Notes under the pieces: model-generated
The model's database searches: none
What the model was told of the DNA's origin: nothing
The model's input: only the letters and a program-made list of their open reading frames with translations
Part shown: positions 19 to 57,035 of the stretch, one piece after another
Layout: the number at the start of each line of letters is the position of its first letter
Position numbering within the stretch: position 1 is the stretch's first letter
Program-made: the position numbers and the translations under genes
Assembly: GCF_040938485.1 (NCBI RefSeq)
Contig: NW_027271016.1
Location: 1,908,436 to 1,972,435 of the forward strand
Origin: Diadema antillarum
Lineage: Eukaryota
DNA: 64,000 bases
Reading direction: 5' to 3'

Positions 19-3000
19 ATGTCAAATAATCCTGCCAGTCAGAGTGAGGCTGCAGGCTGGACCACTAGTAGAGTTGAGGAACACATAAATGATATTGACA
101 AAGAAATGCGGTCTGAGACAGATATTTGTGAAGACGAGCCCCTGGCATTAAAAACAGTAGTAGAGAATGTGAGTAATCAAACTGGAGATGAGCATGGTGA
201 AGAGCTGGATTCCTCATCCAATCAGTTTTCAAAGCATCCTGTTAGTCAGAATGATGTTGCAGGCTTGACGAGTGTAAGAGTTGAGGAACAGCACAATGAT
301 ATGGACAAAGAAATGCAGTCTGGGACAGAACATTTGCAGCCAACAGAAACCAGCCATGAATGCAGTGAAAACCAAGAGATGACTGAACATACTGATGCTA
401 TGGTAGCACCTGATACAAACATTGACATGCAGCAAGATTCAACAGAGAATTCAGTGGTGTCTGACCCTGTATGTGTGGATGAAGCACCCCGTCAGGTTCT
501 ATCTGCAGAAGAAACACTTCCACCACCAAATCTCACCCCTTGGCAGCAAGAATCTGAAGTCAGCACATCTGTGTCTCCTCGAGACAACATGGAGAATGTT
601 GAACATGAACTGGATCCAGGTGCACCACTCTTGACACCAATGGAAATTGATGAGTCTCCTTTGCACAGTACAACCTGTATGGGACAGTCAAGGGAAACAG
701 ATACTATCCTCGAATCAACTGTGTCAGAATCAAGAGAGTCTGCAGAGTTGCCTGAGGGAAATATTGATGATTGCTGTAGCACATCGGGGAGTGAGACCCT
801 AATGATTGATGAAGTGCCTTCCATGCCAGCAGCAAGTGAGACGAATGTATCACAAAACACAGTGCAGAGGAGTGAACGAGCTATGACAGCGTCAGAGGAT
901 CGGGATTCGACCAGTATGGGTCATGATGTGGCTGACAGCTGTGATCCAGAGTCCATGCAGGCACACACGAGTCCAGCTGTGCCCTCCCGTACCTTCACCA
1001 CATCAGACACTCATCAGTCAGCTGAAGTCATCCGTGAACAAGCAACAAAAGGTGTGTGTCATGTTTCAGAAGCTTGGGATGAAGCTCACAACAAAAGCGA
1101 AAAATCTGCACAAAGTGACTCGGACAGAGTGACTCCAGATGCTTCAGGTGCGTCTTCCAGGACCAATATGTCAGAGCCAGATGATGCCAGTTCTTCCACC
1201 CCAAAGCAACAAGAGTGTGCCATTAACTCTGATTTGTCCATTGTCGAAGTTGATGCTGCTGAGGCATCAAGTTTAGTCGGCTCCAAGCATGTGAAGGAAG
1301 GAAAGGTTGACAATGCCTTCAACATAGTGATGGACACTGCTGTCGGGGATTTAACTGTTTCTGGTAGAGACCAACAAACTGCCCAAAAAGAAACAGACAC
1401 ACCCAAAGTGGATACATTGGCAGAGGTAGTACAGACACCTGAGAATGTAAAAGTATGTGTAGGAGATAATATTAATGAATGTAAAACTGCTGAGATGGAT
1501 GTCGAAGGTGAAATAGATGTGGCAAGTGATGCTGTTTCAGAGAAAGGGAGGGAACAAAAAAAATTAGGCAGCTCTTCTGAAGGAGTGGTAATCTCTGAGA
1601 GGAGGAATGCAGATGATCAAAACAGGAATGCATGCACATCATCAGTGTCTGCTGATGAGTCTGTAGGGTCTGTTGACAGGGAAGTTGCATCAAAGGAAGC
1701 ATTTTGTAGCAGTTCTCAAGAAGTACCATGTCAAGTTGATACCGTTAGTACTGCACCTTTTAGAAATAAATCTGATGCAGGAGGGACTACATCCCTTTAT
1801 GAGGAGGGTAATTTTGGTAAAGCCTCAGAGATGCAAGATAGTACATTGAACAGTTGCCATAAAACAACAGCTCCTGTGGGCATAGATGATGCACATTCAA
1901 AATCGCCACATGAAAACATTTCAACAGTGTTGCCATCTCAGCCAGCACAGTCAGAAGATGAAACATGTGGTGGGAATGATACATCAGAAGAAGTGAACTT
2001 AGGTAGAGCAGACGAAACTGTCGTGCTAACTGAAATAAATTCAGAAACAAGAGCACCACTGGATCCAGAAGGCAAAGATATGCCCCTTGAGGAGAGAGCT
2101 CAGAAGGTCAGAAGAGAGCTGATGAACGTTTCAAAAATCATTGAGCAGGTTAGCGGAAATCTTGCAGAGAAGATAGCAGAAGATGTCATTCAGTTCCCTG
2201 AGTTGTTGGGGCAAGAAAATACATCAGCGATGCAGCAGGTGGTCAGTTGTGCTGGAGACAGTCCTACTGATGGTAAAGCAGCTAATCCCTCAATAATGCC
2301 CAAGGCTGACAGTAAACTGAGTGAACTTCAACGTGGTATGGATCAGACAGAAGTCAAGAAACTCGCTTCTGGAGGGGATATTGCCATTCATAAAACAGGG
2401 CAAGAGAGTCAAATTGCTAGCTTGACAGAAATGCAGGATGATGGAGGGATCCAATCTGTTGGTGGTGCAGCAGTGCCTTTGACTTGTCATGCTTGTGAAG
2501 AACCAGAGCCAATGGAGACAGATGCAGATGGTGGTAATCTCTTGATTGCCGAAAATACCTCAGAAACTGTAGATGTGAGGTCCTCTGAAGGAGAATCGTT
2601 AGATTCCAGAATGTCCATCAAGGTCCCAGTCCAAGCTGGACAAACAGTACAGAATAATGAAAGTGGCATTCAAACTGCTAGTGAAATTGCCAGGGTCGAA
2701 GTCCCCACCCAGGTGGATGTGCAGAGTGAGGAAAACAGGGCAAAGCCCACAGTTGTGAGTGACCCACTGTCTGGTCAAAACATTACTGATTCGATTCCCC
2801 AGGCAAGTGAAGATACAGCAACCATCATCTTAGGAGAAATTCTCAAGATGTCGGAGAGCATGAGCAAAGGTGGAGTGACTGTTGCTCCTCTAACCGAAGC
2901 TGGCGTTCCTCAAGAACCTCAGGAGATCTCACAAGTAATGCAGGAGGCAGTAGAGATTGATGATCGAAGTGCATCCAAGAAGGTAGAGCAGAGTATGGTG

Positions 3001-3874
3001 AAGGTAGAGCCGAGCTTGGGGGCATCTGCTTCCGATCAAGTTGTCATCTCATGTGAATTTCTTTCCAAAAGTGATGATGTCATTGAACATTTGCATTATG
3101 AGTCTGCAAGCCAAGAGGTTGTGGACAAAGTTTATGAAATGGAGGTCTCGTCGGTTTGCCGCCAAGCTGATGCTCAATCTGTAACTGGGAAACCCATGCC
3201 GGCAAACCAACTCAAGAAAATGGAGGTCCCGTCGGTTTGCAGTCAAGCTGATGCTCAATCTGTAACTAGGAAGCCCAGGAAGCGATTACTTGCCAAAACA
3301 TGCCGCACAGGGAACTGCTCTTGCAAATACTGTACCAAGGCAAAGAGAGCCAAGCTGGCTGAGGCAGAGAGGGAAGCAGAGGACAATCGCATCAAGAGGA
3401 AACCCATGCCGGCAAACCGATTCAAGAAGCTCTCAATCTCCTTCACCCCAACTGCTGAGACTGTGAAGTGCACCATGTGTACGAAGCAGTTTGAGAATGA
3501 AAAGAGCATGCAGGAGCACTTTGCGTCTGCCCACACCAACCTCACAAAGCTCTGCCCGATGTGTAAGGTGAACTTTGAGAGTGATGTAACCCTGCAAGAG
3601 CACGAGGCAGAACATATGCACAATGGTCTGTTTGTGTGCCTTGTGTGCGGCAGGACTTACAAACAGAAAGCAAATCTTGCCAGGCACTGCGAGACTCACT
3701 CCAAAGACATCAGGGCAAAGGCTACATGTACCAAGGGAGAGGCGTCTCCCACTAATACTGCCAAGCAAGAAGGATTGGGGATGAAGGTGAAGAAGGAACG
3801 GTTTCCGTGCACCCGTTGTGGCAAAGAATTTGTTGACGAAAAGCTGCTGGAAAATCACAAGAGGATTCATACTG
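19..3874 (+). CDS. Large exon of a C2H2 zinc-finger protein gene: a long acidic Ser/Thr-rich disordered region followed by about four C2H2 fingers. The reading frame is open back to position 1, so this exon and the gene 5' end probably lie partly upstream of the window.
   Basis: Uninterrupted 1297-codon ORF with no stop. C-terminal C2H2 motifs (CTMCTKQF...H..H, CPMCKVNF...H..H, CLVCGRTY...H..H, CTRCGKEF...HKRIH). The exon ends ...RIHTG with a GTAAGT donor at 3875..3880. Internal ~81-bp tandem coding duplication at about 3138..3290. Confidence 0.8.
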
Positions 3875-4099
3875 GTAAGTCCTGGGCTTTAAAAAAAGAG
3901 AAAAGAAAATGAGAGTACCAGAGGTGCATCTTAGAGACTTGCCTACAGTGTCAAATTGAGCTGCCAAGGTGAATGTATGATGTGCTGGATGTGATCTAGA
4001 CAATGGGAAACTCACCTCATGCACACAAAGTCTCCACACTTTAAAGGCATAATTTAACATAAATTGCAGATGAAACAAACACCCAGCAGTAGTGCTTCA

Positions 4100-8700: not shown

Positions 8701-10962
8701 TTACTTGCCAGTATTATGCCGGGGGTAATTGCCCTCGGGGGTACAATGTATTTGCCCAGACACGGTTACACAGTATTATATTTACTGCACTTGTAATACT
8801 TGTGATATCTCTGAATCATATGTTTGTTTTTTTTTTTAAATAAAGTGTGGAGTCACTCTCAGAGGGTAGAATTAGATTTTGGTAAATTTTCCAGTGTTTG
8901 TAGGTTTGTCCAAGAATGAAGGCCATATTACATACAGCCTGTGATTTGCCAGTTGAAACGAATGCCCAGTGTTCTATTTTTTTCTTTAAATGCCATTTGC
9001 TGGCAGCAAAAGGCAAATTTAATCATTACTCAAAGTCCCATTTCAGAAAAGAATTGATAAATGTAGAAAGGTGGGTTATTTTGAGTGCTCTTTTGAAGCA
9101 TTTGGAGGCAAGTAATTAATGCATCAACATGAATGTTATAAGAATATGGGTGTCAAGAAAACAGACACTAAACAAACGAGTGAGGGGATAAAGAAAATTG
9201 GATGGTGATGTCACTTCTGAGTGAAAAAAAAATGGAATATATGTATATGTGTGACAAAAATATCAGCTGTGCATACAATCGTCCCCACATCTTTGCTTTA
9301 CATGTATTAGAAAACTTGCCTGAGTCGACCCTCTCATTACGTATTATGACATTTCTTTTTTCTTTTTTTGGGGTGAGGAAAGCAGTACGTTGCATTTGAC
9401 TAATGCAAGAGTGGGAGTGGTGGAAGGGACCTTCTTTCATCCAAGGTGCAACATAACTGAGGTTTACAACAAATGAAAGAGTGTGAAGTGTCCCTTTAAA
9501 TCTCTTTTGCAGCCGCTCACACCGTCTCCCCTGGATAGATGTGCTTTGCATGGATTCCTGGATTTGGAGGAAACATCTTATATATTCATGTATGTATTTG
9601 CAAGGGATGCTAGCATTTGTACATTTTTTGTATTGGCATCTGAATAAGAGCAGAATTCATCCTCCAGTCACCAAAGCAGTGAAGAAGAGATTTATCACAA
9701 TTTTCTTTTAATGTTAGCATTATGCTTGTGAAATGCTGAATGTGCAAATAATTTGTGATTTTTTTTAAATCAAAATTTTGAGTTTACCATCTCACCAATT
9801 ATATTTAAAGTGATACAATGTGATTTTTTTAATTGTAAAACTGTGATTGCATGATGCCTGTGAGGTTTGTGATAGGTGTATACATTTGTATACGCACATC
9901 CTTGTCTCGTGTCTGTGTATCCCAAGCAGTAGTGTGAAGGGAATATTGTAATTATTAAACTGTAAAGCAGGAGTTGGGAAATGTTTACAACTGAAAAACA
10001 ATGTTGCAATTTTTGCTCTGAATTGTGACTAGTGTTAAGTCATTCGCCTTGCCAATTCATTAACTGTTTACTTTTTGTGGTCGTTTTCATGCACTGTAAG
10101 TTTGAATCGTCCCCCATCGCTTTTTTTTTCTTAAATCTTGATTTGTGTGCAAAAAGGGCAGTAAAAATGTTATAGCTGCAGCCGTATGATGATCATGCAG
10201 TTTGCAAATTGAGAAAATGTAGAGAAATGGACTTGGTCACAACTCACCCTCTATATATTTTGGACTGTGTGTCATTGTGATGTAGATTTAGAGATGGAAG
10301 AAGAAGAAGCGATGTCAGTTTTGCGTCTATAAATAAAAAAATACCATGTTTAACTTACTTTACTGGTTCTTCTACTCTTGCCTTCTATATCTTTCTTGTC
10401 TGTATGTGTTGCTTGGCTGTACTTTGTGCACATTGTTGTCATGTGTTAGTAGAATACACATACATACATATATCAAATACTTATCTTCTGTTTCTGTAAC
10501 TTGATTTGGTCGATTTGGCACCTTTTGGCATTTATTTTGTTTACATGTAGTTGTACAGTGTACTCCTGTTATAACGAACACGGTTACAGCGAAATGAAAA
10601 TTCAGGCCGCAACATTATCCGCTCTATATGTTTTTTAATTATTTATTTGTTCGGGTATAACAAAATTTTGATGCGATGAAAGAAAACTGCCGGTCCCGAT
10701 GACTTCGTTATATCGGGAGTCCGCTGTACTGTGCAAGTAATACATAAGCCTACATATACATGGTTGTGCACTATAACCAGAAATCTGTTATCAAAGGTAC
10801 ACACACTATCTTAGTCTACCATAACAAATCAAATGATGCATGCTCTGTCGTGGCATATCTAAAATGTGATGCACACCTTGTGCATGTAATTACAAATGAC
10901 TCAGTTTGCGGTCGAGTTGGTCGTTTGCATTTGCACGAGGTAATTAGTCGGAAGGCTCTTAG

Positions 10963-11200
10963 GCCCGAATTCACGAAGGTGGTACAATTGAAACCATGGT
11001 TTAAACCATGGACAGTTTGTATGGAGCGCCAAGTGTTGCATGGCCTATTTCATTATGAAATAAGTCATTTTGTCGTTTGTCATTTTGTCGACAAAATGAC
11101 TGATTTCGTAGTGAAATAGGCCATGCAACACTTGGCGCTCCATACAAATTGTCCATGGTTTAAACCATGGTTTCAATTGTACCACCTTCGTGACTTCAGG
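10963..11200. repeat. ~240-bp almost perfect palindrome (hairpin or foldback MITE-like element) centred on a GTCGAC site.
   Basis: cccgaattcacgaaggtggtacaattgaaaccatggtttaaaccatggacag...gtcgac...ctgtccatggtttaaaccatggtttcaattgtaccaccttcgtga. The two arms are reverse complements with a few mismatches near the centre. Confidence 0.85.
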
Positions 11201-11289
11201 CCTAAAAGTTTGCTTGTCATTGCAGTGAAGTAGACAATTAACTGATCATTGTGTCTTCAACATATCAGGACAGTTATCCCCCAGGGAAA

Positions 11290-15519: not shown

Positions 15520-16149
15520 CTAGGTGGGAGGAAAACCAAAGGAAGCATGACAGACTAAGTACAGTCAACATCATCTAAAGCCCGCCGCACACTATACGAC
15601 TCACAACTATACGAGTGACAGCCTTTGGATCTGAAATAAAGAAGCATGTTTGTTCTGAGGCTATTGTGAATTATTTCGGATCCAAAGGCTGTCAGTCGCA
15701 TAGTCACGAGTTGTATAGTGTGCGGCAGGCTTATGTCTACCTCATGCAAGTCAAAAAATTGGTGAAGTTGAGGTAAAATTGTACCTCAGATGGATATGAA
15801 TGTGTTAATTCTGTTGTGTAAGTTGACAGATTTTAACCCCTAGTCCTTTTGGACTCGACTTTAGGCAAAGTTGATTGTACATTGTATACCTTGTCAGAAG
15901 GTATCGTACGTCTCATTCCACTATTAGTAACTCAATGTTTTATTGAGTTGCTGTTTATTCACCAGGATGTATACTTCTTTGTTAACCATTTGCGTCTTAA
16001 TGCACTTTGTTGTAACTTGCAAAGCTCTTCTATCTTTTGTCACCATTTGTTTTATTGTTCGTTGACATAGCCATGACATAAGCAAGACAGGCTGACTACT
16101 GTGTAACAACATGAAATTTTCATACATAAAAGATTGCGATGCAGAGGGG

Positions 16150-16580
16150 TTAGGGGATAAGATAGACTTAAAGGGACTGTACAGTACTGGTTGAGGTGGG
16201 GATTCATGTTTTGAACATTCTTAAGTGAGATAATGAGAAACTTCTTATGAAATATGCAAGAGCATGTACAAACATGTAATTTTAAGAAGGATTCAACGTT
16301 TATTTGATGAAAATTGGTTTTCAAATGGCTGAGATATCCGAAAAAGTGATAATAATAAAAGGCGACATGCCACAACTTTATTAGGATCTCTTTGTTTCAC
16401 CTTGTTTTTGGATATCTCAGCCATTTCAAAACCAATTTTCATCAAATAAACTTTTGATACCCCTTAGAATCGCATGCTCTTTGACATCTCATAGAGTGGT
16501 TTCTGAATATCTCGCAAAACGTAAAAAGCTAAATCCTCACCTCGACCAGAACTGTACACACCCTTTAAGTAATTCTTCTT
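16150..16580 (+). repeat. Copy C (3' part) of the same interspersed repeat family as 4100..4870, in the ULK4 intron between exons 24 and 25.
   Basis: gtactggttgaggtgggg...aaatggctgagatatccgaaaaag...ccatttcaaaaccaattttcatcaaataaact is homologous to 4440..4870. Confidence 0.7.
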
Positions 16581-17807: not shown

Positions 17808-18350
17808 GGTGTGTTTATGCTCAATTTGCGAAGGCAGAATCAGCGTTTTGAAAGGCTGATTCAAAATGCTGATTCAAAACGCCGTTCATGGGAGGACTGT
17901 TTATGCTCACTTTCTTCGAGCCTTGGAAAGAGCGTTTGCGATTGCTTCGCTGACCTTAGCAGAGGCAGGTCAAATTGGGGCGTGCGCTGCGATCGGTGGC
18001 CTGGCCTGGGAGAGCAGCTGGGAAAGACATGCGTATGCACAGTACATGGGAAAACTGCACAGGCCAGGGTAGCTGGCTGGCCGGGCACGCTATTTTTTCA
18101 CATGAACCGGAAAGGCGTTTAGATGCCGTCACTCTAAACGTGTTTAGAAACGCTGTTGCGTTCATGCTTCCCCGTCAAACGTGATTAGTCAGAAACGCTG
18201 ATCGTAAACGTACCTTTTTTGTGCATTTTGGATCGGCGTTTTGAATCAGCGTTTCTATCGAAATGAGCATGAACGTAACAGCGTTTTGCACTAATCACGT
18301 TTCAAAAGCCTGAATTTGGCCCCCAAAATGGAAGCATAAACGCACCCTAA
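17808..18350. mobile_element. Candidate MITE or DNA-transposon remnant (~540 bp) with imperfect terminal inverted repeats (gtttatgct...gattcaaaacgcc motifs at both ends), in a ULK4 intron next to exon 23.
   Basis: 17808..17885 is partially reverse-complementary to 18230..18350. It contains internal short inverted repeats of cgctgattcaaaacg. Confidence 0.4.
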
Positions 18351-38800: not shown

Positions 38801-38844
38801 GTTTGTTGTTATCACTATTATCGCTGTTTATTCTGTACACGAAC

Positions 38845-40185
38845 GATTGTAAATCAGCAAGGGAAAATGTATTCATTTTGAAATATGCAGATGACACTGT
38901 TATTTTAGGACTTATTGATGAGGATGAATCTAGCTACCGGGCCGAGGTTGGACGTTTTACCTCTTGGTGTGACAAGAACTGTCTGCAGTTAAATCTCACC
39001 AAAACTAAGGAGATTGTGTTTGATTTTCGGAAAATGCCCCCACAGCCAAAATTTATAAATATTGGTGGTACAGATATTGAGATAGTCAAGAGTTACAAAT
39101 ACCTAGGGACAACAGCGGACAGTGAACTTTCTTGGACTGAAGAGTGTAGATCTGTTATCTCAAAAGGCTGGACTCGTATGTACTTTTTTAGAAAACTGAG
39201 ATCACTACACATTGATAGAACTATTCTCAATCTTTTCTATAAATCACTTGTTGAAAGTATTGTATTGTTTAACTGTGTCATCTGGTTCGGGGTCTGCAGG
39301 AAACAAGACTTCAAGAGAATGGAAGCTATAGTGAGACAGGCTAGCAAAATCACTGGGGAAAGTTACGACCTTACAAAGGAATGTACAGATCGGATCGCCA
39401 ATATGGCAGATGGTATTATGTTAAACGAGAATCACCCGCTACATGATTATTTTGAATTCCTACGATCAGGCAGAAGACTACGGTCTCTGAAATGTCGTAC
39501 AAATCGATATGCAGACTCCTTACGCAATCAGGATGTGTAATAACAACCGCTGATTTTTGTATAAAGTGAAGGGAGAGCTGTAGCTGGTTTGGTGTATGAC
39601 GGCAGGGGGGGGGGGGTATTTTGAGCATTATCAAAAACACACAAGAATTTTATGGTTTGCAATTATTTGAATAGAATAACTTCTAAGTGAATTAAGATTA
39701 ATGTGCAATAGTTGTCTGATTGTGCACATCGGGCGTGTCAGGGATTCAGTGAAACGAAGCAGATTTTAGCTGTGTGTATGGGGGGGGGGGGGTGTAAGGA
39801 ATATGTGCAATATGTGTTATAATTTATGGATTATGATATTTGGAGTGGTCTGTGTAAAGTAAGGTGTTTCAGAATTTGTGGTTATACAACTTTTTGCGGC
39901 AATTGATTTTTCCATAATTTTCTGTGTATGTACACAAATATATTTATTTTTCCCCCTTTGCACGTTAAACACATGATGCCAGTCAATGTTTTGATGTATG
40001 TTTGGTTCCCTGTATTTTTTGAGTATTCACTTGATGTTTTATATGTAATGTAATATTATTTGCTATTTATCTGTTGTCAATATGTGTTTATGAATGTGTG
40101 ACAAAATCAAATTTCCATGCCATGTTTTTATACATAATTTGGACAATAAAGAAATAAAGAAATGAAATGAAATGAAATTATTTGC
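38845..40185 (+). mobile_element. 5'-truncated CR1/L2-clade LINE fragment (RT C-terminal half plus 3'UTR) ending in an (AAATG)n microsatellite tail. It lies antisense within the ULK4 intron between exons 6 and 7.
   Basis: ORF 38803..39540 encodes ...FILKYADDTVILG...KYLG...RTNRYADSLRNQ. That matches the YADD motif, the KYLG motif and a CR1/L2-like C-terminal RTNR-type motif. aaatgaaatgaaatgaaat lies at about 40160..40183. Confidence 0.7.
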
Positions 40186-43499: not shown

Positions 43500-44107
43500 C
43501 TAGAAACCAACACTTACAGAGTTTAGAAGCCATCCATGACAGACCACTCCCTGGATGATGATAGTGCGTCATTTCTCATTGACCACTAATCATGGTCACA
43601 TTATACATGGTGAGAGAAATCAAATCCTACAAATGCAGCTACACAGCACATCTAGTATCATTCATTCTTTTGCTTTATCTTCAATACTACATATGTACAT
43701 TCATAATTGCTTATGAAACAATATTTGGCTGCACAAGAAAATGTGAAAATAAAAACCAATTAAAAAACATTTAACACTAAGCATATTATTTACTTGTAGT
43801 TTGAAGATATATATGATTCCAAAGATGATATTGGACATCATTAACTATGTGTACATGTATCACATCTTGTTCCAATTCTGAGTTGGCAAGAACTAAACAT
43901 TCACTGGAAATAAACTTGATACCAAACTTTGATAAATGCAGTCAACCTCACAAACACATACAATACAGCCATGAGGTTCTCTATCAATGCACAAACTACA
44001 TGTTAACTCTGACAGCAATTTCAGGTATTCAAAGAATGCATTAATTAGAATATAAAATGTGTTTCATATTTAATGGAATGCATTAAGATATCATAATGTC
44101 TTCTTTA

Positions 44108-44247
44108 CTTTGCTTGGCTTGAAGTCAGAAAAGAGCATTCCCACAGAGTGGATATAATGGAGTCCCCTGACAAGGTCCAGGCCAAACTCGCGAACAGCCG
44201 TTTCAGGGAAGTGGCCATCCTGGGACAGAATTAGCTCCAAACTCCCA
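44108..44247 (-). CDS. ULK4: ULK4 exon 2 (kinase hinge and C-lobe).
   Basis: GSLELILSQDGHFPETAVREFGLDLVRGLHYIHSVGMLFSDFKPSK. Acceptor gcag|, donor aaa|gtaaag. Phase continuity with exon 1. Confidence 0.8.
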
Positions 44248-45256: not shown

Positions 45257-46284
<1,028 letters not shown>

Positions 46285-46300
<16 letters not shown>

Positions 46301-46762
46301 GCTCATGAGGACCGCTCCCGCGTACGAGGACTGCCCCGCCTCATGAGGACCGCCCCCACGCCTCATGAGGGCCGCCCCCATGCCTCATGAGGGCCGGGGG
46401 GGAACGCCTCATGAGGCCCCCTATTCACTTCTATTCATCTCACATCTGACGTATAAATTGTCGCAACTTTGCACGGTGATTTTTTGTTACACACACATGT
46501 CCACTATCCATGATGAAAAGAAGAAAAAATCTTATCTGTTTTTTTTTTTTCAAAAATCGAGTTTTAATCAATCGATGCAGAGCGCCCATTAAAACACACG
46601 TGTTTTAATGGGCGCTCTACATCGGTTGATCAAAATTCGATAAGTGAATAGGGGGCCTCATGAGGCGTTCCCCCCCGGGCCTCATGAGGCATGGGGGCGG
46701 TCCTCATGAGGCGGGGCAGTCCTCGTACGCGGGAGCGGTCCTCATGAGCGGGTTTCCCGGAC
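46285..46762. repeat. ~480-bp near-perfect foldback (long inverted repeat) built from palindromic CCTCATGAGG subrepeats in GC-rich context. The left arm has 5 copies and the right arm 4. A ~190-bp spacer contains its own smaller palindrome centred on CACGTG.
   Basis: The arm at about 46285..46437 is the reverse complement of the arm at about 46632..46762, with one extra subunit on the left. The mirrored ORFs 46106..46381(-) and 46660..46908(+) share identical peptide starts, which is a by-product of the inverted repeat. It sits about 0.75 kb upstream of the ULK4 ATG. Confidence 0.85.
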
Positions 46763-47698
46763 TGACTCCATTCACCGCCATTCATTTCGTCACAGCTAGC
46801 CGGGGACTTCTTTCAACATCCATAGACTTTGCACATAGTGGAGACACACACGCAGAACGAGAGGGGGTCGATATCACGATTTGGCCGAGAAATTGCACGC
46901 ACAGATAAAGAATGCAATGATTGCACCTTCATAACCACATAGACCCTACCTCCTACACAGATTTATACATGTCGGACTACAACGACGTTTCTCGTTTATT
47001 GTTTTAGAACAATTCTAATTACGAAGTGCCGTTGTACAAGTAATCAATATGCGCTTGTGGTTACTTATCAATTCATAATAATATTGATTAAGATAGACAT
47101 ATTTTATGTACCTAACCAAATGTATAAGTTACACATTTCATACGACTCTAGAACATTTGAAATGAGTGCGAGCTTACCGTTGCCTTAGAGCTGAGAGACG
47201 CCACATTCCGATCCATTTGGTGGCAGGACAAGTCGACCCTAGCAAGCACGGTTGTAGGTGAGCATAGGTTACAAGCTCGGCCCGGCCCAGTGTGAAGCTC
47301 GGCACGATCGAGAGACAATTAATTTTGTTCTAATATCCTACGGTGTGCAGAAGAAATCATATTCAAATTGGTTTAGACATAATTTGTGGTTAGCCGTGCT
47401 TGTAGGATTCACAGAATCACGGAACCCTCCATAAAAACGTTATGAAATACATTTCATATGAAATATGTTGATTTAAAGTGCAGGAACATCAGGAAGACCC
47501 ACTGAATCCTAGCAGCTAGCTTCACTTTCAGAATAATAACAGGGAGCCAAATAATAATAAAAAAAGAAGAAGAAAACAAACAAACATAATGTATAAAAGT
47601 TATGTTAGTGATAGGGCAATTCATTTACCTTCTTCAGAAGCCAAAGGAAATAATATTGCCCCAGAATATATCCCCAACAAGTCGAGGAAATGTCTACT

Positions 47699-47761
47699 TT
47701 AAAACACAAACAAACAAACAAACAAACAAACAAACAAACAAACAAACAAACAAACAAACAG
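47699..47761 (+). repeat. (CAAA)n microsatellite.
   Basis: aaacaaacaaacaaacaaacaaacaaacaaac. Confidence 0.9.
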
Positions 47762-50658
47762 ACAACAAATTTGTGGATTTCTGCTGAGTTTCTCCATCTG
47801 CAGGGCTATTAGTCTTATCATTTTACATAATATAATAGACCAGCTGTTTGAGTATCTATGATGATAGCAAATGGATTTTACCAAAAATCTAAACAAAATA
47901 AAAGGTCATACATGACTGTGCACAGAGTGTAGGCCTAAGATTTTCCTCAACTTCTTCAAGTAATGAGTTCTAATTTTTCTGCATTGACCAAATTGAATTG
48001 AAATAATTCAATCTATTTTATTTCCATCAAGAGAATTCATATTTATAGGCCTAAGCATATATATGTATAACAAAATAATTTTATACAAAAAAGACAACCA
48101 AATTTAGGACCTACAGTATTTTCTCATGAAGTGAAAATGAAATAAATACTGATAGGTCCTCCTAGTACATTATAATAGTACCGGTAGTGTAATAGTTCAA
48201 GTGGATAATGATGATAAAAAATTTGTGATCTAGCTTAAAGAGCTATAGAAACCTGTCATAGAACATGGAAGATTTAGAATGATTGGACAACAAAGCTTAT
48301 GCAACAAACAAATACCAATTATCATTCTGAATACAGCAGATTATAAACAGAACTACTGCTCTCGAATAGACTATCTTTAATGAATGTGTGAGTCAGTGGG
48401 GATTGAACTATTAGGTCTATGTATACATTGGACAAGTAGGCTATACTAGAGTAAATTCCTCTACAATCCTCTGATTTTCATTTCGTATATTTGGTGACTC
48501 TTTTGATTTAGGGTAAATGTTCGATACTCAAAGGCACCAGACAGATCTATTATTTGATTACTGTTGTATCCATTTAATTATCATTAAAAAAAATTAAAAT
48601 ATAACAGTAGCATAATTATCACATTATCCATGATAACAACATGACATTGTTTATTTTACCTTTAAATCCACAACATGAGCAGAACATTGTTCTCAAGAAT
48701 GATAAATGATGATTTTGTGACTGATTTTTATTTTATTATGTTTTTTTCATTATTCATTATCAAGAGCCATTTGTTGCTGTTATTGTTTGTTTGTTTGTTT
48801 TCTCTTTTTATAAGCAGCTTGTAATGAACACAGATGAAAATCGAAGATTATCGCAAAAGAAACCAATAGGTGGCGCGCTGGTAGTTCTTCGGTTTTTATC
48901 GCAACACAGCATGTCTCCGCTGCGTGCTCCGCTGTCGGCTGCCCTGGGATTGCGTAAGTGATTGTTTACTTTTATTCTCTAGTTTATTTTACTATCTCTG
49001 CATAACATTGTCTTGTCATTTATCCAGGCCAAAATCTGAATGACTGTGGGTATGATTCAGTACACACCATATCATATACCAACGTGATTTTTGATCCTGT
49101 CGCTAGCAACTAGCATTTTTGTCGATTCACGGAAACATCTTTGTTGTGTAGTCCCATATATCGCTTTTCGTGTATGTTTACAGAATGTACATTAATTATT
49201 CCTCATTTTCGGTAGCAGAGTACAGTTGGCCGATTGGTAAAAGGTGTGTGAAAAAAAGAAATCCGTGAGGGAAAGAATTGTATGGCTTTTAGTTAGTCAG
49301 AGTAACCGATCAGTGAAGCCAAGGGCAAGGAGTTTGCTTTGCCATGCTAGCCAGTGCTGTCCAGAGCCTCCAAGGCCCTATATGACGGCTATGTACTGTG
49401 ACACTGCACTCTGTGGATAGTATGGTGTATCGGTGGCAGTGGCGATCGGTCACTCTAAATTTACTCTATCCTCTCCAATCCTTTTTCCTTCATAATTTTG
49501 TGAACTTTGGTGTCTCTACCAATAGTTCTCTGTTCTTGTGGCCGTTTTTGTATTAATGCTGTCAGAAAACCAGCGAAACTCTCGCCATCTTTAGGGGTCT
49601 TACTGGATAAACCGCCATCTAACCAGGCCCTCTCCAGTGGCGCCAAACCAATACGTAGTCCCATACACTGCACTCAGCGTCAGTGTAAGCCTGACGGCAA
49701 GGTTCTTCATCATCATCACTCATCTGCGCGCTGCTGCAAAAGACCGACTGTGTATGGTAGGCCTACCAGCGATACACAAACGGTGACACGGCATTGATTC
49801 TTCACAGCTACAGCTAAATTGCACCCGCAACTGCCTGCAAGTCAACCTCATCCCCCACTTTAGTCAACAAACCAATACTATATTGGTGAAAAGGTATGAA
49901 TGTTGCATGTTGGCTGGCTGTAAAATTTACTGTGACCAGTGCAGTGGTGCTTGTGTCGTGGTGCTGAATGTTTCACCTAAGCTGCAAGTCAACCTAAGTG
50001 CTGCCGTGTGTCGTCAATTTCTGTTCCTACCGCCAATTTTCGTTCATGGTGCTACATTAACTACTAATTCAATCAGTGCTCCATGTTGCATGTTGCTGTG
50101 ACAAGTCAAGTGCAGTACGTCCTACCCGTTTGTGCATGCTCAACCCAGGCCAGTGACAGTCAGTGACAGTGACTAGCCGCCGGTATTGCATGCACACCGT
50201 GCCATGCCAAGTATCGTTTACCGTCTGTTTTCGCAATTGTCTGTATAACTGTTGCATGCATCACCAAGTGTCATCTGCATCCGTTATATTTCTGTTGCTT
50301 GCTTCACCCAGTGACTGTTGCATGCTTCTCCCAGTGTCTGTTGCATGTCAAGTGCTGTCTGTACAAGTTATACTGTCTGTATTCCTTAACCGTACGTCGC
50401 ATGCCTCACCCAGTGCCGTCTGTATCTGCAGTCTTCTTCATTACTGCCTCATCCATTGACTTATGACTGTTCCTTGCATGCTGTATTTATGACCTGCTTT
50501 GTCAGCTCCACGTTACCATACACCTTATAAATACACACCTGGGAAATACAGAATTCATAAGCCTGCTCTTTTCCCTGGCCATCTAATTTACAGTGTGTAC
50601 CTTTATACATAGCTTTACTGCCTCAATTTTATAGCAATTGTCTGTAATTTAAAGGACC

Positions 50659-53511
50659 ATGACTTCTGCTGTAGGTAATGGTTCACAGAGAAAACGTAAC
50701 AGCCTAGATGGTAAGACATTTTCAAACTTTGCCCTCAAAGATGTCTCCTCAAAGAAAGGTGACAAAAAGATTGTAGCCATGTTCCCCCTCAGAGTCTTTA
50801 ATGCTCTCAAGGACATAGTACTTTCTCTCCTGAGAGATCACAGTAGGCTGTACAACTCAAATCTAACCTCCAGCTTAAGCACGACAGGAGCATCCCCAAA
50901 TGAACAACTCGAGATCGCTTTTCTCAATAAGTCAACCAAGACAGGGAGAGCAGGAAGACAAAGACAATTCGAGATAATTCTCCTGTGTACATCTGGCGAG
51001 ATCCAATTTAAAGGGAGATACCTTACCTACCTTGCTGACCCTATCTTTCCATGGATATGTAACCAACTGAAGGAAGCACACCCCAAGCTCTTCCACTCTG
51101 AGGAGCTCCCTACTCTTCTCAAGGATATCAGCAATCACATCAAATCACAACCATCATCAAAACACAATACATCTGGCTCATGCAAGTGCTCCATGGCTGA
51201 TAAGGAAATCACCTGTACCTCATGCGGCACCCATGCATGTGTCAACGCAGTACAGTGCTCTGACTGCAAAAGCTGGCTCCATTACACTTGTACTGGGTTA
51301 CCAAATGAAGAGGTCAAGGAACTCCCTAATCCAGAGTACATCTTCACCTGCTCACCCTGCCAAGATCAAACTCAGAAGTCACTTCCCAGCCCTCCAGAGC
51401 CTCTTGAGTTGCTATGTATCTGCCCTTTTTGTAACCAATTGGCAGATACTGATTCTATGGAATGCAACCTGTGTGAAACATGGTACCACATAACCTGCCT
51501 CCCTCCATCGCTCAACACTCAAAGGGATGTGCTTGACACATGTCCGACATGCTGGTCCTTGGACATGAACACTCCTACATCCACCTCAGTCGGGACGCAA
51601 ACCACACTATCATGGCCCTCAGTACACACATGTATATCACACGCCACTCAGACAAGTCCAAGCAGAGTGCATCGAGCCGTACTGTCGAAGCCCTCCCAAA
51701 CAAAGCTTATTACAATCCCCCTAGATCAGCCTAAAATCTCTAAGGCTTCACAAACCTCAGAGCAGCCTTCGCACTGTCAAGCCTGTCAACCAAGCCAGCC
51801 TAAACAAGATGCTGCGTGTGATCCCCCTGAGGAACATGTACCAATTCCATCTGCATGTAAGTGTGACAGCCTCTCCAAAAAACTCAAGGAAACAAAAGAC
51901 CAACTTGCCGCAAGCAATCTCTCAAAAGATGTACTCTTAGTGCAACACGAACAAGTGACATCCAACCTACAGCAGGCAAGATATGAAATTGAGACCCTCA
52001 AAAGGCTACGCACTTCTGAATCCAACCACAAGAGGGAAGCTCAAAAGCTTGTTGCAGACCTCAGGTCACAACTAGAGGCTAAAGAGAAAGAAATTGTCTC
52101 ACTCCTATCTGCCAATGACCACCTTGTTGCTATCTGTCTGAACCATGACATCGATGAAAATGAACTCCCCACTCCTCCAGAGGAAAGGTACCCAGAGAAG
52201 CAACCCAAGGCGTCAAAGGAACATCATATCCCCCCTGATCATTCTGGACACTTAAGCTCTCTGACTACACACAGAGGATCCTACAAACACTCCCTCACCA
52301 TCTCTAACCGTTTTAGTGTCCTAAGGGACCACGTGACTGATAACCAGTACGCTTCCAAGGACACAAAGGATGATGCCCTAAACCCCAGAAGGCAAAGCAC
52401 TCGCCGTGAACACACACAAGCAGGAGGAGGTCGCAGCAACACTGGTGGGAAGCATCTACACAGAAGCCAGAGCGACCCATGCCTATCCTCCAAGAAATTG
52501 AGTCAGGCAGCGGACACGAGCTGTCGTAATGTGGCTGCAATCGGTAAGAGGACGCACTACCACCAACCCGTCAAACATGATATGCGTGGACACCTTGGAA
52601 CTACTCAACTTGATCGCATCTCCAATGACAGTTACCGTGAGAAAAGCAACAGGACTGCAGATGTTCTGCCTCGACCCATGAGAGAGCCCTCAAAGAGACC
52701 CATATCTCCAGATCCCTGTGGACATAGGTCACCAAACAAAGTAACTGGTCACCCCAACAAAGCTCCCACATCTATGCAAGCAACACTTCCAGCAGGTGGA
52801 TCTGCAAACCCTCATACCTCGGGAAAGACCGCCAAAATAAATGAGAACAGAACTCTCTTCTCAGCAGGACAGATCCAAAGACAAGTAAACCCTACTGGCA
52901 AAACCAACAGTCATCAGCAAACCAGACACTCAGACCCCATGATATCCGGACAGAGACCCTCAGTCACTCAGCCGGATTTCCAAACCAAGCCTGCAAGAAA
53001 CTCGTCAGGACAGGAAACTACTCAAAGCAAACTACATCGACCCAGCAATATCCCATACCAGGCCTCCCTGCATACCTTACATCCTGTGAGCAGGACCAAC
53101 ACCCCAAGGCTACCAAATCCTAATCCTGTCACCCTGCAGAATCCTTCACAAGCTCCTCCCACCCAGTACTCAGCAGGACACACTGATACACGAGCTCATC
53201 ACAGTCAGGGGCTTACACAGCCTCAACAGCCGTACTCCCATCATGGAAATCCCCCCACTGCAGCTAGCTATCCATATCACTTCACTCCAATCCCCTCGGG
53301 TTTTCACCAGGGCAGAGCCTCGGCACTAACACACATATCGCTCTTGGAATCACTCCAGCAGACCGCAGCATGGACCATCCACCTCCTCATGCATCCAGCC
53401 TTTCCCACGGATCAGATGATCCTGTCCAACCTGCACCACCTTCACCAGCAAATATCTCACCTGGCTCGAAGCAGCCTAAGTCTTCTGCCACCCCTGACAC
53501 AGTTAAATTAA
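50659..53511 (+). CDS. LINE ORF1 protein (950 aa): two PHD-type zinc fingers, a coiled-coil segment, and a long basic/Ser/Pro-rich tail.
   Basis: PHD-like C4HC3 patterns: CTSCGTHACVNAVQCSDCKSWLHYTCTGL...FTCSPC and CICPFCNQ...CNLCETWYHITCL...CPTCW. Heptad-like LKETKDQLAASNLSKD...LKRLRTSESNHKREAQKLVADLRSQLEAKEKEIVSLL. Confidence 0.8.
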   Translation: MTSAVGNGSQRKRNSLDGKTFSNFALKDVSSKKGDKKIVAMFPLRVFNALKDIVLSLLRDHSRLYNSNLTSSLSTTGASPNEQLEIAFLNKSTKTGRAGRQRQFEIILLCTSGEIQFKGRYLTYLADPIFPWICNQLKEAHPKLFHSEELPTLLKDISNHIKSQPSSKHNTSGSCKCSMADKEITCTSCGTHACVNAVQCSDCKSWLHYTCTGLPNEEVKELPNPEYIFTCSPCQDQTQKSLPSPPEPLELLCICPFCNQLADTDSMECNLCETWYHITCLPPSLNTQRDVLDTCPTCWSLDMNTPTSTSVGTQTTLSWPSVHTCISHATQTSPSRVHRAVLSKPSQTKLITIPLDQPKISKASQTSEQPSHCQACQPSQPKQDAACDPPEEHVPIPSACKCDSLSKKLKETKDQLAASNLSKDVLLVQHEQVTSNLQQARYEIETLKRLRTSESNHKREAQKLVADLRSQLEAKEKEIVSLLSANDHLVAICLNHDIDENELPTPPEERYPEKQPKASKEHHIPPDHSGHLSSLTTHRGSYKHSLTISNRFSVLRDHVTDNQYASKDTKDDALNPRRQSTRREHTQAGGGRSNTGGKHLHRSQSDPCLSSKKLSQAADTSCRNVAAIGKRTHYHQPVKHDMRGHLGTTQLDRISNDSYREKSNRTADVLPRPMREPSKRPISPDPCGHRSPNKVTGHPNKAPTSMQATLPAGGSANPHTSGKTAKINENRTLFSAGQIQRQVNPTGKTNSHQQTRHSDPMISGQRPSVTQPDFQTKPARNSSGQETTQSKLHRPSNIPYQASLHTLHPVSRTNTPRLPNPNPVTLQNPSQAPPTQYSAGHTDTRAHHSQGLTQPQQPYSHHGNPPTAASYPYHFTPIPSGFHQGRASALTHISLLESLQQTAAWTIHLLMHPAFPTDQMILSNLHHLHQQISHLARSSLSLLPPLTQLN

Positions 53512-56500
53512 GCACATTCAACTCACGAGGCACCACCAGTAGCTCCCTTTTCATACAGCACCTTCTACGCACCTCAGATGTCACATGTATTCAAGAACAC
53601 TGGTCAAATCAACACGGGCTCCAGTCCCTTTCAAACATGGACACCCAATTCCTCACGTTCGCCAAAGCACACGCCGAAGATTCTTACCCAGGCATTCCCA
53701 AGATCGGCAGAGGCAAGGGAGGTCTCGCTACATTCCTTCGCAAAGCAAAATTCATGGACACAAAAGAACTCAGGTGTAACACTACTCGAGTTCTTGCCAT
53801 CTCAACTCGACATGTCTCCACATCTAAGAAGATTCTCATCATTAACTGCTACCTCCCCAGTGGCACCTCACTTGATGAAGTCAACGAGTACCACTTCTGC
53901 TTGTCTACCATCTTGTCACTCCTTAACACCACCGACACAAAGTTTAGTCTGAAAATCGTTGCAGGTGATTTTAATGCAGATATCTCCCGCACTCCACTGA
54001 GAAAGTGCACAGCAGAGATTCTCAAGAGTACCATCATGTCAGAAGACCTTTGTAGTTTGACAGCTCTGAGATGCTCCTCATCTCACTACACCTTCATGTC
54101 CGATGATGGCTCCAGGAAGTCCAACATCGATGGTTTCATCATCCCAAGACGAGATGCAGGGCTATTCCATCACCTCAAAATCATCCTGGAACACCCACTA
54201 AACACTTCAGACCACCGCCCAGTGCTAGTTACTGCACACCTCTCGTCAGATGACCCTGCTACAATTCGGGGATGTGAATCTCATGCAGTGCTGAAGCCAA
54301 AGCCAAATCCAGTCTACCCAGCCCAGAGATACACAGTCCTATGGCCCTCAGACCCCAACAACATTGCAGAACTCTACACTGACCCACTGGAATCCATAGC
54401 GACCTCTCTATTCCGAGACCTACACTCTCTGACACTTGATCCGGATGGCATAGAATGTCTGTCAGCACGTCTTCAGGAGCACATGATGAAACAGTCACTT
54501 AAACTCCCCCACAGAGTTCACAAAGACAGGAAGCAAGGTAAACCACAGTGGACCCAGGAGGTGAAGAGTGCCTACTCACACTCCCTATCAAGCTGGAAAA
54601 AATGGAAACATGCAGGCAAACCAAAAGATGGGCACCCTCTGTGGACGTCATATTTGGAGGCCAAGCGCTCCTTCAGAAGATCCCTCAGGCAAGCAGAAGC
54701 ATCCAAAAGGCTAGCTACACAAGGGAAGTTAGAGCTTGCCAATGAAAGGAATGACACCCTATTCTATAAGCTGATAAAGCTAAATAGGGGCGGTAACTCC
54801 CTAACACAGGACCTCCCCCTCCTGACTTACAAGGACATCACCTTCCATGGTAAGAAGGTCATGGAGGGCTGGCATGCCTATTTCCAAGACCTCTCAGCCG
54901 ATGCCGATAGAGATGATCCACACCCTCCACCTACACGCCACCAAGAGGGTACAGATACTCGACCACCATCCTCTTCTCAGCTCTTCAATGCAACACTTCA
55001 CAATAACAACATGCAAGGCACAGGGGACAACACTCTCACTCTCACTTCACGCCATATCGATGATGCCATCCTGAAGCTCAAGACAGGCAAAGCTCCTGGC
55101 CTCGACAACATCACCACTGAGCACCTGGTCCACTCAGGTCCTATCCTCCGTAGGCTGCTTCTCCTTTTGCTCCAGAACTCCATCAGACTAGGACATATTC
55201 CTGTACCTCTGAAAGAGGCTCTCATCATCCCACTACACAAAGGAGGAAACAAACCGGTTAATGACCCATCCAGCTACAGAGGAATCTCGCTGACCCCAAC
55301 ACTGTCTAAGCTTCTGGAAACAACTCTGAAGCCGAAGATAGAAGACTCTTTAACAGGAGTCAGTATCCCAGACGAACTCCAGTTTGGATTCCAAGCAACC
55401 AGATCCTGTGTGCTTACATCAATCACCCTTCAGCTGATCCTAGAACTCAACTCTGTCCGAAAAAACCCAACATACCTAGCCCTCCTAGATGCAGCCAAAG
55501 CCTTTGACTGTGTATGGCATTCTGGCTTATTCCAGAAGCTCTCCACCACACCAATCCCATCTGAAGTCCAACGCACTCTTGCCGAAATGTACAAAGGAGC
55601 AGCTAGTCGGGTCCTGTGGAAAGGTGAAGTCAGCTCCACTTTCCCACTCCAGAAAGGAGTTCGACAAGGAGGAATCCTCTCCCCCCTTCTATACAACGTC
55701 TTCATAGATGGGCTCATAAAGGTGCTGAGAGCTGAAGACCTGGGCTGCCACTTCCATAATTTGTACGCTGGGGTAGTTGTCTTGGCAGATGACGTTGCTC
55801 TGATTGCCTCGTCAGCAGAAGAGCTGCAAAGGATGCTCGACACTACCCAAACCTATGCCAACACCTGGAAATACAAGATTAACCCTACGAAGAGTGCCAT
55901 CTTAGTCTTCAGCCACAAATGCAACAATACTCACACCTGGCATCTGAACAACGAGCAAATCCAGGAAGTCAACCAGCACCCCCACCTAGGCATCACCAAA
56001 TCAACACAACCTGTAGACCCAATTCCCAACATCATCACCAAGGGATATAATACACTGTTCTCCCTCATTGGAGGATCAGCCTCGCGGAACAACTTCTGGC
56101 CACCCATCATTGCAAAGCTCTGGTCCGCTTACTGTATCCCCAGGATGTTGTATGGGATTGCCGTTGTGAGGCTCAACAAACGTTCTCGGGAGAAGCTTGA
56201 CTCCGCACAGGCTCTCCTCTTCAAGAAACTCCTTGGCCTCCCCAAAAGTGCTGTTAATGAAGCTGTGTTCCTTCTGACAGGCATCCTTCCTCTCTCCCTT
56301 CATGCTGATCTCTTCACTATCCTCTCCCTCGGACAACTAGTCACACTGCCTTCAGACAGGTTCGAGCACAGGATCCTTCTCCATGCACTTGCAAGCAACA
56401 CCCCCTCCATCCCCTACTGGAAGCAGCTTCTTACCAAGCTGAATTTACCCCCTCTCCTCTCAGACACCCCCAACATCGACTACCAAAGCTGGAGAAGGCT

Positions 56501-57035
56501 GTGTCGTCAAGCTGTCCACAATTACCACATTGCACGGATTCGCCTTGCCGTAGATACTAGGCACTCCCTTGTTCTATGGAAACAGTGCAGAAGCCTGCCA
56601 ACCCCTACTAGTCTGTTTCCAGCTTCCCTGCCTCCACACCTCCGCAATGCCTCAAGACTCCGCTCCCAGCTCACAACTGGCACCTACCCAACACAGTACC
56701 GCCTGATGTCCATAGGCAAGTCCTCCACCCCCATCTGCAGACTCTGTGGAGAGGAGGAGGAGAACACAACCCACTTTGTTGCTTCCTGTCCAACCCTTCA
56801 GACCCATAGAGCTGCTTTGATTCAGCACATCAGTGCACTCAACCCTCCAGACCAAGTCATCCAGGATTTCACAGCAAATGACATCTTCATCTTCACCACT
56901 AGCACTCTGTTTCCCTGTCTCTCATTACCTACCTCTCTCTCTGCTGATATTACGACCCACTGCCTCCGATACATTCTCAAAATTCACCTTGCACGCCTGA
57001 ACCTTATATCACAGCTCAACGCGGATAACCGCTGA
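53370..57035 (+). CDS. LINE ORF2 protein (1221 aa): apurinic-like endonuclease, then reverse transcriptase, then a C-terminal Cys/His motif.
   Basis: Endonuclease: TCIQEHW, IINCYLPSG, IVAGDFNADI, SDHRPV. RT: ...LLDAAKAFDCVWHSGL (motif A) and LADDVALIA (motif C, YADD-like). C-terminal CRLCGEEEENTTHFVASCP (CX2CX8HX4C). The frame is open throughout. Confidence 0.85.
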   Translation: MDHPPPHASSLSHGSDDPVQPAPPSPANISPGSKQPKSSATPDTVKLSTFNSRGTTSSSLFIQHLLRTSDVTCIQEHWSNQHGLQSLSNMDTQFLTFAKAHAEDSYPGIPKIGRGKGGLATFLRKAKFMDTKELRCNTTRVLAISTRHVSTSKKILIINCYLPSGTSLDEVNEYHFCLSTILSLLNTTDTKFSLKIVAGDFNADISRTPLRKCTAEILKSTIMSEDLCSLTALRCSSSHYTFMSDDGSRKSNIDGFIIPRRDAGLFHHLKIILEHPLNTSDHRPVLVTAHLSSDDPATIRGCESHAVLKPKPNPVYPAQRYTVLWPSDPNNIAELYTDPLESIATSLFRDLHSLTLDPDGIECLSARLQEHMMKQSLKLPHRVHKDRKQGKPQWTQEVKSAYSHSLSSWKKWKHAGKPKDGHPLWTSYLEAKRSFRRSLRQAEASKRLATQGKLELANERNDTLFYKLIKLNRGGNSLTQDLPLLTYKDITFHGKKVMEGWHAYFQDLSADADRDDPHPPPTRHQEGTDTRPPSSSQLFNATLHNNNMQGTGDNTLTLTSRHIDDAILKLKTGKAPGLDNITTEHLVHSGPILRRLLLLLLQNSIRLGHIPVPLKEALIIPLHKGGNKPVNDPSSYRGISLTPTLSKLLETTLKPKIEDSLTGVSIPDELQFGFQATRSCVLTSITLQLILELNSVRKNPTYLALLDAAKAFDCVWHSGLFQKLSTTPIPSEVQRTLAEMYKGAASRVLWKGEVSSTFPLQKGVRQGGILSPLLYNVFIDGLIKVLRAEDLGCHFHNLYAGVVVLADDVALIASSAEELQRMLDTTQTYANTWKYKINPTKSAILVFSHKCNNTHTWHLNNEQIQEVNQHPHLGITKSTQPVDPIPNIITKGYNTLFSLIGGSASRNNFWPPIIAKLWSAYCIPRMLYGIAVVRLNKRSREKLDSAQALLFKKLLGLPKSAVNEAVFLLTGILPLSLHADLFTILSLGQLVTLPSDRFEHRILLHALASNTPSIPYWKQLLTKLNLPPLLSDTPNIDYQSWRRLCRQAVHNYHIARIRLAVDTRHSLVLWKQCRSLPTPTSLFPASLPPHLRNASRLRSQLTTGTYPTQYRLMSIGKSSTPICRLCGEEEENTTHFVASCPTLQTHRAALIQHISALNPPDQVIQDFTANDIFIFTTSTLFPCLSLPTSLSADITTHCLRYILKIHLARLNLISQLNADNR

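Follow-up and report, generated by a model that had tools for sequence, protein, structure and literature searches.

Foldback transposons are defined by the tandem subrepeats that they carry inside their long TIRs (PMC4079207). Subrepeat TIRs of this kind, with a variable number of subrepeats, a small or absent unique middle and copies that are mostly non-coding, are found in FB, Tetris, Galileo and Tc4. Among sea urchins, the TU elements of Strongylocentrotus purpuratus are foldback transposons with tandem short repeats in the outer domains of their TIRs (Liebermann et al. 1983, Nature 306:342; cited in PMC4079207); these TIRs are reportedly several hundred bp long, with a repeat unit of ~15 bp and a target-site duplication longer than the one described below. 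MITEs, in the accepted definition (PMC5199201), are non-coding elements of less than 800 bp with TIRs and a target-site duplication, and lie close to genes. Here we describe a 479-bp GC-rich inverted repeat that occupies positions 46286-46764 of the 64-kb stretch of DNA that was analysed as a whole (the window). We consider it likely that this is a recent non-autonomous foldback/MITE-type class II transposon, with a 4-bp target duplication (ACTC), in an unmethylated promoter-proximal domain of ULK4. An earlier, sequence-only reading of the locus had named a foldback-type transposon insertion as the alternative to a regulatory or fragile element; in view of the sharp ends, the flanking ACTC/ACTC, the jump in GC content, the non-coding sequence and the TE-rich region upstream, that alternative emerges as the better supported reading.

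The left arm has a length of 145 nt (46286-46430) and the right arm one of 123 nt (46642-46764). When the former is aligned, with gaps allowed, to the reverse-complemented right arm, the two are identical at 122/123 positions, and the sole gap in the alignment is one of 22 nt, which corresponds to one extra subrepeat in the left arm. When folded as single-stranded DNA, the element reaches -226 kcal/mol, compared to -71.5 +/- 4.7 kcal/mol in dinucleotide shuffles (z = -33). Both results bear out the foldback of near reverse-complement arms in the sequence-only reading, including the careful arm alignment (122/123 with the 22-nt gap) on which that reading had staked its claim. Its finer measurements need revision: the arms, given as ~150 and ~130 bp, measure 145 and 123 nt, with their unequal copy number upheld; they hold 6 (left) and 5 (right) motif units placed 19-24 nt apart rather than 5 and 4 copies of a ~22-bp unit; and the loop between them spans 211 nt rather than ~190 bp. 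Tandem Repeats Finder describes the left arm as 4.9 copies of a 22-nt period and the right arm as 3.9 copies of a 19-nt period. The decamer CCTCATGAGG is found seven times in the 64-kb window, with all seven occurrences falling within the element; its expected count in 64 kb is 0.05, and none of 100 shuffles attained seven.

The composition of the element sets it off from its surroundings, with 68-69% GC in the arms vs 39-42% in the 1-kb flanks. As a whole, it has 53.7% GC, a CpG o/e of 0.93, three CCGCCCC/GGGGCGG boxes and one CACGTG. Its ORFs do not exceed 91 aa, and the peptides from these (spurious ORFs of the arms and loop) had no homologue in protein sets of 5.8 billion and 1.84 billion sequences. 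The locus displays features of a class II element with TIRs, namely defined inverted termini in a non-coding sequence of 479 bp (<800 bp), together with the FB-like combination of tandem-subrepeat TIRs and a unit number that differs between the arms (6 vs 5).

The left terminus is a non-repeated sequence of 15 nt, CAGTCCGGGAAACCC (46286..46300, plus strand). It is part of a 25-nt end that is copied exactly, as the reverse complement, at 46740-46764 and does not recur in the window, even at a tolerance of 3 mismatches. It is followed by the left-arm array of six subrepeat units of 19-24 nt (46301..46430, plus strand), which combine a palindromic core, (C/G)CTCATGAGG or, in one unit, the degenerate GCGTACGAGG, with a C-rich spacer; the units are spaced by 19, 19, 22, 22 and 24 nt in the left arm and by 19, 19, 22 and 24 nt in the right arm. 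The outermost two units are degenerate (GCTCATGAGG; GCGTACGAGG) and the remaining ones perfect, which accounts for the four perfect decamers on the left and three on the right. All spacers are C-rich (ACCGCCCCCAYG) except the penultimate one, which is a G-run, i.e., an inverted unit, so that small local palindromes are present within each arm too. The 22-nt unit found only on the left is the single alignment gap; we place it at 46350..46371 (plus strand), a position that is ambiguous within the tandem array.

Inward of the left array lies a 125-nt AT-rich unique segment with a T12 run (46431..46555, plus strand). When the left half was globally aligned to the reverse-complemented right half, this segment had no right-side counterpart, and elsewhere in the window it gave only poly-T matches. 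Next comes the 42-nt left strand of an inner stem (46556..46597, plus strand), which is complementary at 38/42 positions to the right strand (46600..46641, plus strand) and includes a perfect 18-nt core, GAGCGCCCATTAAAACAC; the two strands flank the symmetry centre of the whole element (AC, 46598..46599, inside ACACGTGT). The right strand runs directly into the right arm (46642..46764, minus strand), which comprises 5 subrepeat units and the 15-nt terminus and matches the left arm minus its 22-nt unit at the 122/123 positions noted above. In other words, the right 42-49 nt of the 211-nt loop correspond to 46556-46597 in reverse complement and pass into the right arm without a break; consequently, the entire right half (46600-46764, 165 nt) mirrors the left half. 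Overall, the element forms an almost complete palindrome around 46598/46599, which is broken by the left-only 22-nt unit and the 125-nt segment alone. The loop palindrome of the sequence-only reading is therefore present, but in place of 60 bp it measures 2 x 42 nt (up to 2 x 49 when ungapped), and the CACGTG (46597-46602) on which it was said to be centred has its own centre 1 nt off that of the palindrome.

The two parts of this palindrome differ in their conservation, with mismatches at 1/123 positions in the outer arms vs 4/42 in the inner stem (Fisher p = 0.015). The better conservation of the outer arms would be expected of a symmetry kept up at family level at transposase-bound sites, but not of a single local duplication. 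The long hairpin could form in single-stranded intermediates. The length of the spacer affects the instability of inverted repeats and, going by what is generally known of such spacer effects, the one realistic cruciform would be that of the inner palindrome (2 x 42 nt, with a centre of 2 nt). Extrusion of a full cruciform from the duplex should be disfavoured by the one-sided 22-nt and 125-nt segments. Likewise, the asymmetric halves and the 211 nt between the outer arms weaken the idea of a cruciform or fragile site.

The inverted repeat stops abruptly at CAG.../...CTG, and these ends abut a candidate 4-bp target-site duplication, with ACTC at 46282..46285 on the left (...GCACTC/CAGTCC..., with the slash marking the junction) and ACTC at 46765..46768 on the right (...GGACTG/ACTCCA...). 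Flanks that match by chance over 4 nt are encountered at 0.54% of positions in this window, and over any length of 4-10 nt at 0.71%. A candidate for the flanking target-site duplication that the sequence-only reading had advised looking for is this direct match at the ends, seen at a single insertion, with a chance expectation of ~0.7%. The duplication of 4 nt is read from this one insertion, and another register gives an imperfect 8-bp repeat: the ends would then begin with GTCC..., and the repeat, GCACTCCA/TGACTCCA, would match at 6/8 positions. This register requires 2 substitutions in 16 flanking bases of an element that is otherwise 99% symmetric. Family copies would be expected to have the end sequence CAGTCCGGG, and the precise empty site expected from an insertion would read GGTCCCCACTGCACTC joined to CATTCACCGCC (...GCACTC/CATTCA...). 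A comparison with shuffled sequences showed that neither flank resembles the interior above chance; a potential likeness of the right flank (CCATTCACCGCCATTCA) to the interior (CTATTCACTTCTATTCA) was rejected, since its score was no better than those of the shuffles.

We then searched for other copies of the element in the window, the JGI metagenomes, GTDB, IMG/VR and the protein sets; no echinoid genome is among these, which makes for a weak negative. The 64-kb window contains neither a second copy nor a transposase or autonomous partner. The 31-nt two-unit pattern had no match in the JGI metagenome contigs and the terminus and inner-palindrome core had none in IMG/VR, both being collections without the source animal. 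A three-decamer pattern recovered 8 metagenome and 5 GTDB matches, all of which are unrelated tandem arrays of 21-25 nt with other spacers. A two-decamer pattern recovered 43 contigs from IMG/VR, nearly all GC-rich, with an unrelated pair that is nearly always TTCCTCATGAGGAA-N6-TTCCTCATGAGGAA. A literature search with sequence strings from the element returned primers only.

Two of these sets of unrelated matches deserve a brief description in their own right. About 40 phage contigs from IMG/VR (L001-L043; e.g., L001:4994-5023) with 60-68% GC share the TTCCTCATGAGGAA-N6-TTCCTCATGAGGAA pair beside GGTTCCCGAGGCAACTGCGG; this pair has the look of a binding site for a repressor, or of a tandem operator, and bears no relation to the element from the sea urchin. 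The metagenome contig L048 (Ga0063142_1039144; 42% GC) carries, at 449-1064, a tandem array of 21-nt units with 15 CCTCATGAGG cores, which may code for a 7-aa repeat and has spacers unlike those of the urchin unit.

The competing explanation that survives best, albeit an unlikely one, is a local palindrome: a GC-rich 22-bp minisatellite upstream of ULK4 would have undergone an inverted duplication by template switching or by replication of a hairpin-capped break, and then been homogenised by intrastrand pairing and gene conversion. Such an origin would account for the almost complete palindromic symmetry of the whole element about a centre of 2 nt, for the 99% identity of its arms and for the lack of another copy in the window, JGI or GTDB, none of which holds the source genome. 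However, it sits poorly with the inclusion of the non-repeated 15-nt terminus, the abrupt ends and the 4-bp flanking direct repeat. Moreover, the flanks are unlike the interior, which indicates that there is no source array nearby, and the higher divergence of the inner stem relative to the outer arms (p = 0.015) would not be predicted from a single duplication.

The element lies upstream of ULK4, which is encoded on the minus strand. By ORF and splice reading, the coding part of ULK4 exon 1 extends over 45289..45526 (minus strand), from an ATG at 45526 to a peptide ending in ELCTG and a GT donor; exon 2 follows at about 44100-44240 (minus strand). The 126-aa peptide from these two exons matches the Pkinase families; its best match, at 89% identity, is a ULK4-like protein of Lytechinus pictus, and it is 60-66% identical to vertebrate ULK4. 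The window therefore stems from a sea urchin other than L. pictus. The element is 759 bp from the ATG, in agreement with the ~0.75 kb of the sequence-only reading. Its location in the presumptive ULK4 promoter is likewise corroborated, as it falls within a promoter-like CpG-undepleted domain at about 45.6-47.5 kb. CpG o/e is 0.46 in the window overall, 0.7-1.1 across this ~1.9-kb domain (45600-47500) and 0.0-0.3 in the flanks of the domain. The domain takes in both the element (0.93) and the AT-rich sequence on either side of it; hence, the high CpG o/e of the element (0.93 vs 0.46) was not taken as a sign of youth, since the non-element flanks within 45.6-47.5 kb share it. Invertebrate genomes tend to have methylated gene bodies and unmethylated promoters, and our analysis suggests that the domain is probably the unmethylated promoter domain of ULK4, with the element in its middle. 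CpG-undepleted promoter-like regions are a common landing zone of DNA transposons. The ULK4 strand has matches to two further motifs, TATAAAAG (45744-45751) and CCAAT (45811-45815), which are 218 and 285 nt upstream of the ATG. An (ACAA)16 microsatellite is found at 47706-47769, about 1 kb upstream of the foldback.

This setting raises the question of whether the element, perhaps as an exapted transposon, serves ULK4 as a cis-regulatory module, in which 9-11 CCTCATGAGG-type sites for a dimeric factor, GC boxes and a CACGTG E-box act together, or else as a CpG-island-like promoter patch. The short distance to the ATG (759 bp), the position ~535 bp upstream of the TATAAAAG and CCAAT motifs, the residence in the CpG-undepleted domain and the composition of the element (53.7% GC, CpG o/e of 0.93, three CCGCCCC/GGGGCGG boxes and one CACGTG) would all be in keeping with such a role. 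We nevertheless hold it to be improbable. The high CpG o/e is common to the 1-kb non-element flanks and is hence a property of the domain, not of the element, and the near-identical arms favour youth over long-term selection. In two echinoderm contigs that carry ULK4 (L044 and L058, from distant species), the exons alone align, at 76-77%, with no alignment of the promoter regions and no recovery of an empty site. No factor with CCTCATGAGG as its binding site is known to us; the literature search with this string gave primers only.

The very stable fold also brings to mind a hairpin-RNA locus, i.e., an miRNA or endo-siRNA precursor transcribed across the inverted repeat. A search with Rfam returned no family at or above its gathering threshold in the element; the matches below threshold were to MITE-derived plant miRNA families, MIR5048 with 32.7 bits (gathering threshold 160) and MIR7502 with 41.5 bits (71). 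These scores are far under the thresholds and reflect a generic hairpin shape only, and a perfect stem of 145 bp is un-miRNA-like, which makes this explanation very unlikely. Least credible of all is an assembly artefact, in which a foldback chimeric read was collapsed into the assembly: chimeras from library preparation or long reads can yield palindromes with tiny centres, but this palindrome is unlike its flanks in sequence, has one-sided segments of 22 and 125 nt, measures 479 bp only and has a direct repeat at its two borders, beyond which the sequence is normal and unique on both sides.

The wider neighbourhood is TE-rich, with a LINE 3.9 kb further upstream and several unrelated MITE-like hairpin repeats in the window. 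The former is an apparently intact non-LTR retrotransposon (50659-57035, plus strand). Its ORF1 (50659-53511, plus strand) codes for a 950-aa protein with a PHD finger and is overlapped by ORF2 (53370-57035, plus strand), which codes for a 1221-aa protein with an Exo_endo_phos endonuclease, RVT_1 and zf-RVT domains. A 253-bp near-perfect palindrome of 41% GC at 10956-11208 has 120-nt arms (94% complementary) and a 13-nt centre; its sequence is not related to that of the ULK4 foldback and no duplication is evident at its flanks, and it may represent a further hairpin-type MITE. Within the ULK4 gene body there are further inverted repeats at 15578-15732, 16236-16504 and 17850-18255, with arms of 33-72 nt that are 85-87% complementary and with differing sequences. 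Two other ORFs were noted in the window. One of 1297 aa (19-3912, plus strand), on the opposite strand to ULK4 and downstream of its exons 1-2, has C2H2 zinc fingers near the C-terminus and could be either a host gene or TE-encoded. The other, of 245 aa (38803-39540, plus strand), combines a partial reverse-transcriptase domain with an ALKBH8_N match and is probably a retroelement fragment. Look-ups for records of the exact products of ULK4 exon 1, the LINE ORF1 and the zinc-finger ORF returned none.

Taken together, the sharp TIR ends, the flanking direct repeat, the foreign composition, the subrepeats within the TIRs and the non-coding sequence lead us to favour a foldback/MITE-type transposon, and it is from these features that we infer its mobility. 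The allelic diversity of sea urchins is 4-5%; the 1/123 mismatch between the arms is far under this value, which argues for a recent date of the insertion or of the latest homogenisation between the arms. The insertion may well be polymorphic among individuals.

As a mechanism, we propose that the 15-nt termini would be the cleavage ends and that a transposase encoded elsewhere in the genome, presumably dimeric, would bind the phased palindromic units as multimeric sites; with the units about two helical turns apart, these sites would lie on the same face of the helix. The transposase would cut at the CAG termini, in the manner of other elements that carry arrays of subterminal repeats, and integration with a 4-nt stagger would give rise to the ACTC duplication. 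The 22-nt difference between the arms could have resulted from slippage or unequal exchange in the tandem array. The palindromic layout may be the product of an internal deletion, or of a foldback of one end, in a longer progenitor, of whose interior the 125-nt unique segment may be a remnant. Any effect on ULK4, be it via the GC-rich sites, the E-box or a hairpin RNA formed upon transcription, would be a by-product of the insertion. A more ambitious version, namely an undescribed echinoid foldback family whose arms are arrays of the 10-bp perfect palindrome CCTCATGAGG, phased at two helical turns and recognised by a host factor or a dimeric transposase, and a recent insertion that brought a block rich in GC and CpG, with an E-box, into the unmethylated promoter domain of ULK4 and now modulates ULK4 transcription or yields a hairpin RNA, strikes us as a long shot.

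If the transposon reading is correct, the element adds one more young gene-proximal DNA-transposon insertion to those in unmethylated sea-urchin sequence and would help in repeat annotation; it might also provide a presence/absence marker or a natural variant of the ULK4 promoter. It opens no new question, and would acquire greater weight only if the subrepeat represented a new mode of DNA recognition by a transposase, or if the expression of ULK4 were measurably altered.

Comparison with the known superfamilies of class II elements allowed us to set aside several of them on the basis of their ends and target sites. Tc1/mariner elements are marked by a TA target-site duplication (PMC10741241); although the terminus begins with CAGT, a frequent start in this group, Tc1/mariner/pogo does not fit, since the flanking dinucleotides are TC on the left and AC on the right, not TA. 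For hAT (8-bp duplication, YARNG termini), the 8-nt flanks under the CAG ends, CTGCACTC vs ACTCCATT, mismatch, with 6/8 matching in the shifted register; similarly, the perfect 8-bp duplication of P is absent at the CAG/CTG ends. The TTAA duplication of piggyBac/Kolobok does not agree with 4-nt flanks of ACTC, and the 5-bp duplication of Transib is excluded by the flanks at the CAG/CTG ends. The flanking 3 nt, CTC on the left vs ACT on the right, speak against CACTA, PIF/Harbinger, Zator and the 3-bp form of Academ, which has a 3-bp duplication (PMC5199201). Ginger elements have 5'-TG...CA-3' termini and a duplication of 4-6 bp (PMC10741241), whereas the termini here are CA...TG. A 4-bp non-TTAA duplication is also compatible, in general, with other families, such as Chapaev or the 4-bp form of Academ, and with Sola; families other than Sola are less likely. 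Sola elements have 4-bp duplications, TIRs of 11-1124 bp and very variable termini (PMC10741241; PMC3627910), and Repbase bases a Sola-type assignment on terminal positions 1-11 with at most one mismatch (PMC4455052). The element, with its ACTC/ACTC, has a candidate duplication of 4 bp as in Sola, and it resembles the non-autonomous Sola members in that this candidate duplication is not TTAA and in its compatible TIR length; the agreement proper is in duplication length only, at one insertion.

In its architecture, the element is closest to the Drosophila FB and FB-like elements and to the S. purpuratus TU foldback transposons. The FB/FB-like elements are likened to it by architecture alone, with TIRs at the kb scale vs 123-145 nt in the element. 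Their subrepeats likewise differ, being 10, 20 and 31 bp in FB and ~220 bp in Tetris, whereas the element has subrepeats of 19-24 bp that contain a palindromic core of 10 bp. FB elements make duplications of 9 bp. The duplications of Tetris are 8-10 bp (PMC4079207) vs 4 bp for the element. With the TU elements, which we compared by description, it has in common the sea-urchin host and the foldback TIRs with tandem short repeats in their outer domains. With MITEs it shares a size under 800 bp, the non-coding sequence, the TIRs with a candidate target-site duplication and the proximity to a gene; however, MITEs are typically AT-rich and high-copy, whereas the arms here have 69% GC and the TIRs are unusually long, covering most of the element. 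In all likelihood, the element belongs to a well-known kind, of which it would be a new or so far unrecognised member.
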